Shown here one piece after another: positions 32,901 to 37,457 of a DNA stretch of 64,000 bases. The notes under the pieces are model-generated. The model searched no databases. It saw only the letters and a program-made list of their open reading frames with translations, and was not told the DNA's origin. Each line of letters begins with the position of its first letter. Within the stretch, counting starts at the first letter, position 1. The stretch lies in contig BLZN01000136.1 of the NCBI GenBank assembly GCA_014132315.1, positions 10,654-74,653 on the forward strand. Direction: 5' to 3'. This stretch comes from Rickettsiales bacterium (lineage in GTDB: Bacteria > Pseudomonadota > Alphaproteobacteria > Rickettsiales > BLZN01). Made by a program: the position numbers and the translations under genes.

Positions 32901-34237
32901 TCATGTGCAAAAAACAGGCGAGAAGATACTAACAAGTGTATTGCTTAGATTTAATTTATCAGATCGAGCCTTACTCATAGTATCTTCTTTAAGCTTTTTG
33001 TCAGAAATGAGTTTTTTACGATGATTTTTGTGGTCTTGCTTACAGATTTCATCATCTAATAACATGTTAGAAAGATTACTCAGCTTATCTTCAATTTCAG
33101 ACTTTTTCGCTTTTAAAGTACCCATATAGTCGTTTTCGTTATCTCTGTTATCTAGCGATCGACTTTATGGGTGTTTTACAATTTGATTTATTAGTTGTTC
33201 GCTTTTTTGATGTGCAGATAATTCAGCAGTAACTTGTTTAATTACATCCTCTTCTTTAATCCACGTTTTCTTGTAAGGACATCCAGGTTTCAAGATAATT
33301 CCAGGCAGCCTTTTGCCATTTTTATAAGTTCTTTTTATCGTACTCGATATAACTGTTTTCTCGGTCACATCGCATTGATCATTTTCTTGAATAAGTGATC
33401 TTTATACCCCAGTTATTTGCCTTTTTATCCCAACCCAATCTTACTTCTTGGCATTGGCTAAATAGGTCTTTTGAAATAATTGGTGTGTAAATGTGAGGAA
33501 AACTTTGGTCTTGAGTCTTGCAATACATAACTCCGTAATAAAAAGGCTTTATTATTGAGTAGACATGTGATTTTGTAAGTGACTTTTGTTTGCCTCTAGA
33601 GTTGGGTAGCCTCCATTCGATACTTCACTTACGTAACTGAGCTAAAGAAAATCCTCTTGTCGCATAGTCTTCAAATAATCTCTGAATTAGAGAGGCACGT
33701 TGTTTGTCTACAACGATATTGGATCTTCCGTCAGAATCCTTAACATTAGGATAGCCCATATGAGCTGTGCTTATCCGTTCGCCGCTTTTTAGTTTTTACC
33801 GGATACTTTTTTATATTATCGTGCAAGCAGTCTGTATAGGATTGGGCTATGACTACACCCCACATCATTCTTTCATGAGACTTAGAGTCTCTATGAGCAA
33901 TATACCCTTTGGTATTAAAATGGATTTCAATTTTGCCTTCTTGAATGAGTGCATCGAGAATGCGTACTTCTTTGTTTCTATGCTGTAATCTGCCTACTTT
34001 GTCAGCAACAACAGCTATGATTTCATTTTGATCTTTGGCAGAATCAATTATCTTTATGAATTGTTTGCGATCTCCACGTGTTGAAGATTTTGCCAAAGCT
34101 TATGTTTTGATGATCTCCAGATTTTTCTTTGAGCAGTATTTTTCTAACCGAGTTATTTGAGCATCAATAGGATTTCCGCTTTCCTGATCTTTAGATGAAA
34201 CTCTTGTCAGAATTACGGCTTTTTTTGCTTTGCTCAT
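32901..34237 (-). pseudogene. Large serine recombinase, disrupted
   Basis: Fragments across several frames. MSKAKKAVILTRVSSKDQESG (catalytic-Ser motif) ends in a stop. Then GDRKQFIKIIDSAKDQNEIIAVVADKVGRLQH (resolvase domain), GYPNVKD...IVVDKQRASLIQRLFEDYATRGFSLAQLRK* and LTKSHVYSIIKPFYYGVMY (recombinase domain), then coiled-coil tail ORFs at 33165-33368 and 32901-33125. Confidence 0.8.
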
Positions 34238-34797
34238 TTTAAATTAATTCTCTTTTGTGGTTCTGAAATTAGGTTTTGGGCCTTTTTCTTAAATCCATTG
34301 CCCAATGGGATGATTTCATCTTTCGCTAAGCCTTCTTGGAAAAAACTTCTGATTTGATTTTTTGTTGACTTTTTACTGCTTAGTTCAAGTTTATCAGAAA
34401 TGATTTGTCTTGCTTCATCATCTAGCAAATCTTCTATAACTTCACCGTCTGCAATGATTGCGCTAATTGTTATCGCTCTTTCATTCGCTAATCCGTATTC
34501 ATCCATATATCTTTGTTTCTCCTCCTTTCTTTTAGCATTGCCGTCTAATACGAAGAGCATACTAAGGTTTTGCCCAACACTTAGTGCTACTAAAGCGCCA
34601 GAAATGCCTGCAGCAAGTCTAAGCAACAAGGCAAGATCTTCTATAACAAGCAGCTTTTTTGCATATCTTACAATGTAGTGTTTAGATTTTCCTTCAAGTA
34701 CTATTAAATCCTTTGCGATATCAAACCTTGAAGGGGCAACTTATGCTATCGTCTAATATTATCTTAACATGAGTTAGTTTAAATGTCAAGGACTATG

Positions 34798-35490
34798 TTA
34801 AAGCTGGGTATTTTGATATTTAAAGCCGGATTTGTGATATCCTAGATTTTCGGAAACGGCGAGGGAGCATACGGATCCCGGTTCTTCATGATTATCATTT
34901 TCATGATTATCATTTTCACCTTCCGAATGAGAGCTTTCCCCCCCTAGCGTGGGGTAATCTTCGGAAAATTCCGAGAGATTTAATATGGAGGCCTGTTGGT
35001 CGGGAGTTATTGATATTCTGAGGGTACCTGAATTAGGGCCGAAGGTTGAATGCGCGCGGTTGTCGATTGGTTGGGGGTACAACTGGTTCCTGGTCGTTTT
35101 AGGAGAAATACAAACGACGGTAGGCACTGGCGAAGTGGCAAAAGAAGATTCGGCCAAATTGTTTTGTGAGATGCGCTCATAATGCTGGGGTATTTCACCG
35201 TCTATCTTCTTTAAGTGCGAGTCCAATCGGCTATACATACACTCTGCATGATCTCTGAGCATTCTTTCTTGGACATTAAATTTTTTAGCTATCCATCTGA
35301 CGGCGACGACGCCTATTCCTGTCATGGCTGTGAATAAGACTGCCCCAAAGCCTGAAAATATGACGGAGGCGAGTCGGTCAGCGTATGAGAGTTCGGAATC
35401 GGTAAGGGAAGAAGCAACAGAAGGATGAGCGGGATCTGCATTATATGGATCAGGAAGTGTAGGTGATAAAGGATATGTGTTGTTTTGCAT
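34798..35490 (-). CDS. Intact orphan single-pass membrane protein inside the insertion that splits the OLD-like gene
   Basis: 230-aa ORF that is visibly GC-richer than its flanks. Pro-rich N-terminus, TM segment VIFSGFGAVLFTAMTGIGVVAV, low-complexity tail with duplicated NDNHE. A consensus promoter lies directly upstream. Confidence 0.6.
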   Translation of the reverse strand: MQNNTYPLSPTLPDPYNADPAHPSVASSLTDSELSYADRLASVIFSGFGAVLFTAMTGIGVVAVRWIAKKFNVQERMLRDHAECMYSRLDSHLKKIDGEIPQHYERISQNNLAESSFATSPVPTVVCISPKTTRNQLYPQPIDNRAHSTFGPNSGTLRISITPDQQASILNLSEFSEDYPTLGGESSHSEGENDNHENDNHEEPGSVCSLAVSENLGYHKSGFKYQNTQL

Positions 35491-35497
35491 GTTATTT

Positions 35498-35558
35498 ATT
35501 ATGGGTTGTTAATTATGAATTGTCAATTATGGGTTGTTAATTATGAATTGTCAATTAT
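35498..35558 (-). promoter_or_regulatory. Tandem 28-bp repeat (2.2 copies), each copy a TTGACA-N17-CATAAT promoter
   Basis: The minus strand reads TTGACAattcataattaacaaccCATAAT twice in tandem. The proximal -10 ends 7 nt before the ATG at 35490, and no Shine-Dalgarno sequence is present. Confidence 0.55.
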
Positions 35559-37457
35559 TTTGGTTTTCTTGTATTTATAAGTTTAATCTATCGAGCAAAG
35601 GCTGAAAATAACTTGTTTTTCTTGGGTATTCATTTACAAAAGATCTGTATCTGGCAACTTTTATATCTAAATAATCATCGTTTAATGACGAAGCGTCCAT
35701 GACTGAATCTGTAAGTGCATCCGTTCTATTGGCTACAATAAATGTTTGCTCAAGCCACTTTGATTCGATCATGTAATGACCGTGTGTTGTATAAGCTAGT
35801 GTATGGCTACCTTTTACAATTTCTGGAAAGCTCTATTAATTTCTGCTGAGCAGCAGCGTGTAAATTTGAAGCAGACTCGTCAAGAAAAACAAGATTGGCC
35901 TCTTGTTTTCTCGCATAACTCTAAACTGAGTGAAAAACATGAATGCAAAAAATCTTTCAAAACCCAAAGATCTATCATTTACATCGAGCATTCTTATTCC
36001 ATCTTTGATCTGAAATTTGATATAAATGTCTTGCTCATTGGTCTTTATGATTGCAACATTAGCATCACGTTTTTCTTCCTGACGAGCTCCATAAGATATA
36101 TTTATTTCTTCTCCTCTTATATCTTCTCAAAAGATTTCATTCCAGCCTCCAAAAACAAACCCTGTTACAACAGAACTAGTTCTATCTATTACATGCTGAA
36201 TTTTGTGTTTATCATCACCAGTGTTCCAGATATTCAAAAAATCCAGCCAAGCGACAATCTTGTCTTCGCTTCGAGCTCTTCTTACAATTGATTCTTCAAT
36301 GGTATGACCCTCAAAATTGAGAATATCTTGAAAGGTGCTTCGATAAAATTTACTTACATTATACCGCGCTCTTTGGTGAGAAGAATTCGATTTGGGAAAT
36401 CGAATATAAATGTAAGGAAATATGCGATATCAGGAGTAAAGCGGTATATTATATCCCGTATTTTGGTTCGTTCTTCTGTACTGGGCTCACTCCATTTTTG
36501 CTATCTTCCAGCTTTGATTTTCACATTATTTCTTAGCTCGAGATAGCTTTTTACAAAATCATCATTCTTAAATCTCTATTGCTGTTCAAAAGTTACTTCT
36601 TCATCAAAGCTATCCGGATCAATTACGATATTATGCTTAGCTTTTAGTGCTTTTATGATTTTCTCTTTTTCGCCATCTTCTAATCTTGCAGTAGCAGTTA
36701 CAGAAATATCTCCATTAGAATTAGAAATAAGATGCCGCAGAGCCCTCTCTTTAAACGGAACTCCAGATTCATCCTCTCCTCCAACCAGTTTGCTTGTTGC
36801 TTGATCTGGCGAAAAGCTATCAATAGCTTCTAGTACTGTTGTCTTGCCACTTTTATTTAATCCTACAAAAGCAAACTTTTCCATTTGGACTGAACCTTGC
36901 TGTTGTGTCCTTAATGCCCTTAAAATTTTGTATTCTTAAACTTGAGTAATACATGCCGCTCACATTTTTAATAATTACTGATTTCTAATTTGTTCAAATT
37001 ATAAAATATTTGATTGATTCATAAAGACCATTCGTAATTGAGCGACTTATGGAACGGGACTTGTCATGACTGCTAGCAGGAATTCCCTAAGACATGTTCT
37101 AATAAATTCCTCTAGGGAGCGCCATAAACCCGCTATTCGCTTTCTAAATTATGAGCTTGGCTTATAGCTTGCACTTTGTGTTGAGCAAAATTAATAAATC
37201 AAATTTCAGACTCATATATTTTCCTTTTTAAATTAATAAAACAAGTGATTTACTGCTGATCAGAAGCTTTAATAGTTAACGCAAATTTTTGGCTATTATT
37301 GAAGTCCTTAGCGCTTGACTTTATACATTATTTTGGTTATTTAAGGTAACTGTGTCAAAAAAACACTATTAAGCCTTATTTCCAATTTATTTTTAATCTT
37401 TTGTTAATCTCTCACTATCTATACTTAATTTAATAGTAAAGATATTAATTTTTACTT

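Follow-up and report, generated by a model that had tools for sequence, protein, structure and literature searches.

Within a 64,000-nucleotide stretch of a Rickettsiales genome (contig BLZN01000136.1; hereafter the window, to which all coordinates refer unless another locus is named), the pseudogene of a large serine recombinase (LSR) adjoins the pseudogene of an OLD-family protein beside an intact tRNA-Thr gene. This islet is most probably the fossil of one small tRNA-integrating defence element that carried both the OLD gene and the LSR, on the minus strand and with a span of about 4.2–4.7 kb (about 32775 to 37000–37450). Both genes were already dead before two coral-associated Rickettsiales lineages diverged, and their decay has been nearly neutral since. 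The source genome, RLOatenuis (strain SESOKO1), has a coral host, Acropora tenuis, a size of 1.08 Mb and a GC content of 41.3% (PMC7686419), which agrees with the reduced genome surmised in a preliminary description of the stretch. The GC content of the window is 40.6% and that of the fossil islet ~35%; the OLD and LSR genes lie at 35.2–35.7%, both on the minus strand. The features of the islet and its surroundings are collected in Table 1.

Table 1. Positions of the genes, lesions and flanking features of the tRNA-Thr islet
Feature	Position	Strand	Basis
tRNA-Thr (anticodon UGU), intact	32714-32789	plus	ARAGORN; Rfam RF00005, 71 bits
LSR pseudogene, ancestrally ~500 aa, Resolvase (RVSS) + Recombinase + zinc-ribbon/coiled-coil remnants	32775-34237	minus	Pfam, homologues
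LSR stops	TAA 34102, TAA 33798, TGA 33627, TAA 33167, TGA 32903	minus	Frameshift-aware alignment
LSR frameshifts (at least 3)	near 33811, 33404, 33375	minus	Frameshift-aware alignment
ATGA overlap, OLD stop TGA / LSR start ATG	34234-34237	minus	Sequence (plus strand TCAT), open reading frame table
OLD pseudogene, C-terminal Toprim-type fragment (homologue residues ~464-628)	34234-34742	minus	phmmer, alignment to homologues
OLD pseudogene, ABC-type ATPase part (homologue residues 1-463)	35582-36954	minus	Pfam AAA_15, AAA_23, AAA_21
OLD stops	TAG 36578, TAG 36503, TGA 36129	minus	Frameshift-aware alignment
OLD frameshifts	near 36888, 36361, 35882, 35830	minus	Frameshift-aware alignment
Lineage-specific insertion, ~839 bp, splitting OLD between ATPase and Toprim domains	34743-35581	minus	blastn against the comparison contig L012
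Intact orphan 230-aa open reading frame	34798-35490	minus	Open reading frame table; 45% GC
Tandem 28-bp unit with two TTGACA-17 nt-CATAAT promoter-like sites	35498-35554	minus	Repeat search; directly upstream of the 230-aa frame
AT-rich non-coding stretch, OLD start to ankyrin-repeat host gene	36955-37457		Free of open reading frames

The gene next to the tRNA is a former LSR. Its stitched reading frame matches Resolvase (PF00239, E = 5.3e-10, residues 7–154) and Recombinase (PF07508, E = 1.1e-7), and its RVSS motif aligns to the invariant R25-V26-S27 of 40 homologues. The frame can be aligned over the whole length of homologues of 500–550 aa, with bad erosion past residue ~290. We recovered 126 such homologues at 35–48% identity, all of 500–550 aa and all with Resolvase and Recombinase domains; the zinc-ribbon PF13408 is found in some only. 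With Resolvase, Recombinase, RVSS, a homologue length of ~500–550 aa and an association with mobile elements, the family resembles the LSRs phiC31, Bxb1, TndX and CcrAB.

The 3′ end of the recombinase gene is its most telling part. The preliminary description let the gene end at 32901, and this point proved to be an internal nonsense codon (TGA 32903–32901): the frame runs ~40 codons further, aligned to homologues by both tblastn and frameshift-aware alignment. It then meets TGG at 32789–32787, the exact reverse complement of the CCA end of tRNA-Thr, and closes with W-C-R-L-stop (TAG 32777–32775) within the antisense of the tRNA. The recombinase tail had been said to point at tRNA-Thr; it does, and the frame even ends inside it. 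Rfam finds this tRNA as its only match across 32000–38000.

The same arrangement recurs throughout the relatives of the gene. The clade was surveyed with one genome per GTDB species, which gave 524 stretches encoding relatives; 80 of these were fetched (L013–L092), and the geometry was counted in the 75 that have sequence past the LSR match. An antisense tRNA overlaps the 3′ end of the LSR gene in 64 of the 75 loci, with 23 tRNA species represented, and in 60 of these 64 the in-frame codon of a conserved Trp, TGG, is the exact complement of the terminal CCA. At the protein level, 44 of 120 homologues end in W-x(2-5)-D-S-N, which is the translated antisense T-loop, and a further 18 of the 120 stop within four codons of the Trp. 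Many of the loci come from Rickettsiales (Megaera, Tisiphia and Rickettsia endosymbionts), from Micavibrio and from other Alphaproteobacteria. Since the geometry seen in the window is a trait of the clade, the LSR of the window sits in its clade's native integrated configuration. These family-wide counts strongly support the earlier proposal that the recombinase would have belonged to a tRNA-targeting element, with tRNA-Thr as the presumed integration target on the attR side. The encoding of CCA was also considered as a sign of an element-derived tRNA end; it has no power here, CCA being encoded by two of the window's three tRNA genes.

Two further observations concern this region. Directly after tRNA-Thr, at 32791–32804, lies a terminator-like hairpin, TCCTCAAAAGAGGA, with a T-run, which coincides with the antisense of the final conserved recombinase codons; by this overlap, the same nucleotides serve the 3′ flank of the tRNA and the C-terminus of the recombinase alike. 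At the opposite end of the gene, in many relatives, a small open reading frame (ORF) of 60–82 aa with the motif ..EA.EAARNL(I/T)GF.. ends at or overlaps the LSR start (for example L013 193–381, L020 7811–8014 and L028 7753–7956). This conserved frame could encode a directionality factor or else have a regulatory role.

Classic LSRs have targets that are mostly protein-coding or intergenic sites. The present clade differs from them in that its gene reads into the 3′ end of a tRNA at most of the loci counted, and the copy in the window differs further in being dead. Closer in layout are the tycheposons, small cargo-carrying islets at tRNA genes. Tycheposon-type elements were described from Prochlorococcus, mostly with tyrosine recombinases and replication modules, and 27 of 937 carry a large serine recombinase (bioRxiv 10.1101/2020.12.28.424599). 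Unlike them, the window holds no replication gene. LSR elements that integrate at tRNA genes are thus already known from the tycheposons, whereas a limited search of the literature gave no account of the present clade or its Trp-codon/CCA geometry.

The second gene begins with ATG at 36954, the outer limit of the region given in the preliminary description. Its reconstructed upstream frame matches AAA_15 (E = 5.5e-17), AAA_23 and AAA_21 in Pfam, and Walker A (GLNKSGKT) and Walker B (LVFLDE) are both still readable, which makes this part an N-terminal ABC/AAA_15-type ATPase. Profile searches of the reconstructed frames thereby bear out both families named at the outset, the OLD-type ATPase and the serine recombinase. 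Among 512 OLD homologues, the best are single proteins of 628–632 aa that share 55–65% identity and cover 100% of the 460-aa ATPase part. The 168-aa C-terminal piece recovered just itself in a word-indexed search. An exhaustive phmmer search of 1.84 billion representatives placed it on residues ~465–630 of ~630-aa proteins, with 115 matches, 30 of them below 1e-10. Because the piece maps to the C-terminus of the same ~630-aa proteins, the ATPase and the Toprim ORF are parts of one gene.

Several lines of evidence bear on the nature of this C-terminal domain. Alignments of 32 and 47 homologues show invariant E480-G481, D484 and D530-x-D532, the pattern of a Toprim metal site. Among five homologues searched with PF20469 (OLD-like_TOPRIM), one exceeds the threshold (P0042, 29.1 bits against 23.2), one is below it (P0014) and three give nothing; none of the five matches DUF4435 at E ≤ 1. 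We modelled one homologue, P0002, with AlphaFold2 (AF2; mean predicted local distance difference test score, pLDDT, 79.2). A Foldseek search of this model against the PDB returned the Thermus scotoductus OLD protein 6p74 first (E = 3e-13, 660 aligned columns) and GajA (8u7i) third (713 columns). Neither in the window nor beside the homologues at five loci (L002–L006) is there a conserved partner gene, be it a UvrD-like helicase, a reverse transcriptase, a separate Toprim protein or a DUF4435 protein. It is because of these homologue, motif, PF20469, fold and no-partner results that we file the gene as a probable stand-alone, class-1-like OLD-family nuclease gene, the Toprim part being assigned from the motif, one Pfam match and the whole-protein fold match.

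The homologues share with class 1 OLD proteins (phage P2 Old; Thermus scotoductus 6p74) the single polypeptide with N-terminal ATPase and, probably, the C-terminal Toprim domain with E...DxD, as well as the stand-alone occurrence on mobile elements without a conserved partner. Elsewhere, small islets harbour them together with an integrase and an HTH_17 gene, and they turn up occasionally on viral contigs. They differ from class 1 in that identity in the structural alignment is ~13%, that a PDB profile match is confined to Walker B, and that the Toprim domain exceeds the Pfam threshold in one of the five homologues tested; the copy in the window is, in addition, a pseudogene.

The ATPase head is common to OLD proteins, Gabija GajA and PARIS AriA, and it might be argued that the gene is a component of a PARIS-type (AriA/AriB), Septu-type or Gabija-type system whose partner gene was lost. 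PADLOC indeed ranks AriA first and Old second on the ATPase head, with AriA the top match for the fragment and for intact homologues alike (E = 1e-17 to 2e-25), and PtuA and retron ATPases stand high in the Foldseek list. Yet the AriA match spans the ATPase head only (residues 1–402), and the PADLOC model of an AriAB fusion matches merely the first 48–100 residues. The fused C-terminal E...DxD domain reaches PF20469 and not DUF4435; unlike PARIS, the family has no AriB with DUF4435, separate or fused, its presumed nuclease domain being fused and of the OLD-Toprim type. Unlike Gabija, it has no GajB-type UvrD-like helicase in the islet or by the homologues at the five loci, where HNH partners are likewise missing, as they are in the window. 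The top full-length structural match is, moreover, a class 1 OLD. We consider membership in one of these other defence families very unlikely, and retain the class-1-like OLD assignment.

Neither gene is intact. Lesion maps were obtained by frameshift-aware alignment of the window to intact homologues, and they bear out the several nonsense and frameshift lesions that had been claimed for both genes: OLD has four frameshifts and three stops, and LSR, with five stops and at least three frameshifts, is not an intact, potentially active recombinase gene. For comparison we used L012, a contig from ENA ERZ26168041 that was found through a member of a 90%-identity cluster. It is an independent assembly, from another sample and by another method than the window genome, and the sole relative found. 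L012 is collinear with the window over 29830–45831 at ~92% nucleotide identity (94.0% across the islet), and it has the tRNA-Thr, the recombinase remnant and the OLD remnant as in the window, the tRNA being the same in sequence.

The two genomes share much of the damage. In L012 the OLD frame is shifted at all four of the positions found in the window. No insertion or deletion separates the two genomes at homologue residues 200 and 380, so the frameshifts there are identical; at residues ~22 and ~362 their lengths differ, by 7 nt and 1 nt respectively, and both are out of frame. The LSR stop TAA at 33798 (11143 in L012) and the frameshift near 33375 are also common to both, again with no insertion or deletion between the genomes. 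At least four lesions are identical overall. The three OLD stops of the window and several of its LSR lesions are missing from L012, which has lesions of its own. The OLD catalytic DxD reads DGN in both genomes, and in the window the invariant D484 is replaced by K. The ratio of nonsynonymous to synonymous substitution rates (dN/dS) between the window and L012 is 0.72 for OLD and 0.64 for LSR, against 0.04–0.48 for five neighbouring housekeeping genes. Common lesions together with separate ones mean that inactivation preceded the split of the lineages and that each copy decayed independently afterwards.

Identical lesions in an independent assembly also mean that these common lesions are real and old, and that assembly error is not their cause. 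The matter deserves attention because the window genome was assembled from single-cell multiple displacement amplification (MDA) with 2 x 75 bp Illumina reads (PMC7686419), and the coverage of L012 is, to judge from its contig name, ~3.85x; an MDA chimera, an assembly fault or low coverage might then have produced the lesions, or the 839-bp insert described below, in one or two genes intact in vivo. Beyond the lesions common to assemblies of different samples and methods, this idea has to contend with the loss of invariant catalytic residues in both genomes, with dN/dS near neutral, and with window-specific lesions that include at least five base-substitution stops at a reported coverage of 876x (PMC7686419). 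We give it next to no credence, and take both genes to have decayed in the living lineages.

The argument for one element starts from the junction of the two genes. The overlap of the Toprim ORF stop and the recombinase start as ATGA, already remarked upon in the preliminary description, is confirmed by the sequence and by the ORF table: the ORF at 34234–34629 stops at TGA 34236–34234, and that at 34100–34237 starts at ATG 34237–34235. The junction lies at the natural C-terminus of OLD, where its homologues end. Comparable arrangements exist among the relatives of the recombinase. At L081 and L078, co-directional cargo is followed by the recombinase and then by an antisense tRNA. The cargo of L081 comprises HigB/HigA and a DUF4357 protein whose ORF (7078–8001) overlaps the LSR (7998–9476) by 4 nt, judged from the ORF coordinates; that of L078 comprises a Type ISP restriction-modification enzyme and HigBA.

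Several results weigh against a single defence element. No OLD-family gene occurs within 8 kb of the LSR at any of the 80 related loci (tblastn and profile search), the nearest OLD homologues are linked to tyrosine integrases, and the small ORF conserved before the LSR is not present in the window, where OLD takes its place. At the far side, no remnant of tRNA-Thr is detected in 36900–37800 (score 24, against a shuffle mean of 22.9), and no empty tRNA-Thr site was found, L012 carrying the islet as well; hence the far boundary is placed only approximately, and the unity of the two genes is no more than probable. The identity of the OLD gene has its own weak points, in that the 168-aa piece has no credible match in Pfam or PADLOC, so that its description as a Toprim ORF stands through its homologues and not through a Pfam match of its own, and in that a PDB search with the OLD alignment profile gives a weak match to 6p74 (E = 3.7e-4) in the Walker B region alone. 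Finally, given the MDA source and the ~3.85x relative, some lineage-specific lesions could be errors.

The attachment (att) repeats matching the tRNA-Thr 3′ end for which the preliminary description had proposed a search did not appear: a repeat search at the far side yielded short, chance-level pairs only. Partial tRNA repeats are equally scarce among the 64 related loci, with four weak matches only. Of the two att junctions of an integrative element, it is the proximal one that is backed here, by the family-wide tRNA geometry. As to intact copies in relatives, OLD homologues do occur intact; the copy in L012 is broken too, and the OLD–LSR pair is found at none of the 80 loci. Two elements at tRNA-Pro, L078 (1550–1660) and L081 (4585–4695), have a common outer flank that ends in the T-arm-like GGATTCGAACCCACGAC, after which the cargo diverges. 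This flank may be the distal att; we do not accept it as a proven att site, the acceptor strand not being tRNA-like there.

These same observations lend themselves to a different history, in which two separate acquisitions took place at a tRNA hot spot, OLD stemming from another islet whose integrase was lost, and deletions created the ATGA overlap secondarily. The missing OLD gene around 80 of 80 LSR relatives, the tyrosine integrases that accompany OLD homologues and the missing small ORF would all fit. It explains less well why the two genes have a common orientation, a common GC content (35.2–35.7%) and an exact 4-nt overlap. The intact L081, moreover, has the same type of cargo–LSR junction, and with the OLD C-terminus lying where homologues end, no truncating deletion is visible. 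We regard two acquisitions as unlikely. The operon and element proposed at the outset are thus supported by strand, GC content and the ATGA junction and unsupported by any OLD–LSR pairing in relatives; that both genes sat in one element, its original integration reaction and its defence role are what we infer.

The history of such an element might be pictured as follows. A single operon would have run from a promoter through an ATP-dependent OLD nuclease of ~630 aa, with ABC-type ATPase head and C-terminal Toprim domain, to an LSR of ~500 aa, the two cistrons probably being coupled through the ATGA overlap. The AT-rich stretch upstream of OLD presumably held both the operon promoter and the distal att, the latter since lost; a promoter-like site matching 10 of 12 positions lies there, at 37358–37330 on the minus strand. 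Integration by the LSR would have taken place in the 3′ part of tRNA-Thr(UGU), and the element would have brought a replacement tRNA 3′ end, read in antisense by the LSR gene, with the Trp codon TGG as the complement of CCA. The OLD nuclease would have been the cargo, a putative single-gene (class-1-like) system to ward off phages or competing mobile DNA. Both genes were then inactivated before the lineages split, and decay has gone on since while the tRNA stays intact; a promoter-plus-ORF cassette of ~839 bp probably entered the OLD linker later, and only in the lineage of the window.

This insertion is a feature absent from the preliminary description. It probably came later than the inactivation and is confined to the lineage of the window; it lies in the linker that joins the ATPase and Toprim domains of OLD, at a point between homologue residues 463 and 464. 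Collinearity with L012 is broken in blastn exactly at 34743–35581, and the segment is missing in L012 and in all homologues; the L012 ORF P0358 (...YFQPLFNRLKIVPSRFGIEKD...) and intact homologues read straight through the insertion point. The insert is flanked by an imperfect direct repeat of 12–13 bp, CTTATGCTATCG at 34740–34751 and GTTTAATCTATCG at 35581–35593, and the empty site in L012 reads TTTTTAATCTATTG. No terminal inverted repeats were found in the 839 bp. The GC content of the insert is 41.9%, against 35% for the islet, and a blastn search of plasmid and phage collections with it gave no similarity. A Logan re-assembly of the same reads reproduces the Toprim-side junction and is interrupted at the tandem repeat, 37 bp ahead of the 230-aa ORF. 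Only one assembly thus spans the ATPase-side junction, which is what an artefactual origin of the insert has in its favour; against such an origin speak the reproduced junction, the repeat resembling a target duplication, and the complete promoter and ORF within.

The cassette consists of the intact 230-aa ORF and, directly upstream, the tandem unit whose duplicated TTGACA-17-CATAAT sites are the top two promoter-like matches (11 of 12) of a 5-kb region. The predicted protein has a single hydrophobic helix (residues ~43–65) and is predicted to be disordered elsewhere. Pfam and PADLOC returned nothing credible for it (LMBR1 at E = 0.005, below threshold, and no PADLOC match), it has no relatives in JGI metagenomes or IMG/VR and no paralogue within the window, and it forms a singleton cluster in a collection of 15 billion proteins. 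A single-sequence AF2 model (pLDDT 48.6) is mostly disordered and too poor for a fold search. Within the ORF, an exact 15-bp tandem duplication (TTCATGATTATCATT, twice, at 34885–34914) doubles an acidic ENDNH motif. Purifying selection on the intact ORF was considered and rejected: from the lineage-specific lesion density of the neighbours ~1.7 lesions are expected per 693 bp, and zero is not significantly fewer. The cassette may mark an unknown insertion mechanism, and would be a second, weaker novelty of the islet.

Neither protein family is new, and in the reduced genome of a symbiont a decayed integrative islet comes as no surprise. The fossil has nonetheless led to a clade of LSRs with a highly regular docking at tRNA genes and, in two annotated elements, a cargo of toxin–antitoxin, restriction and nuclease genes. 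It is possible, and we propose it tentatively, that this LSR represents a large clade, not known to have been described as such, in Rickettsiales, Micavibrio and other Alphaproteobacteria that integrates small cargo islets at the 3′ ends of at least 23 tRNA species, with the Trp codon TGG as the antisense of CCA. If these enzymes recombine within tRNA genes and re-target easily, they would be natural serine integrases with predictable, conserved attB sites, and the clade would be an unrecognised vehicle of defence genes in intracellular bacteria. It may accordingly interest both mobile-element biology and the search for integrases with predictable attB. The comparison of two genomes, for its part, orders the events, with acquisition and inactivation preceding the lineage split and independent decay following it, and the fossil would show that islets with defence genes were once present in reduced coral-associated symbionts. 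Further work might pay off for the recombinase clade and the orphan cassette.

Two observations concern the surroundings. The flanking ankyrin-repeat gene (37458–40184) appears as pieces of 67, 411 and 392 aa in the window and is called as a single 890-aa product in L012 (5636–8308); its dN/dS between the two genomes is 1.25–1.65, as in a fast-evolving or decaying gene. Farther off, at 54500–58800, a second run of short, broken minus-strand ORFs lies near tRNA-Gln (54173–54246) and the 16S rRNA gene (52486–53986). It contains fragments of a D12-class N6-adenine DNA methyltransferase (55341–55589 and 55638–55850) and a DUF6362 ORF (54635–54976), and resembles a further decayed islet, of mobile or restriction type, beside a tRNA.

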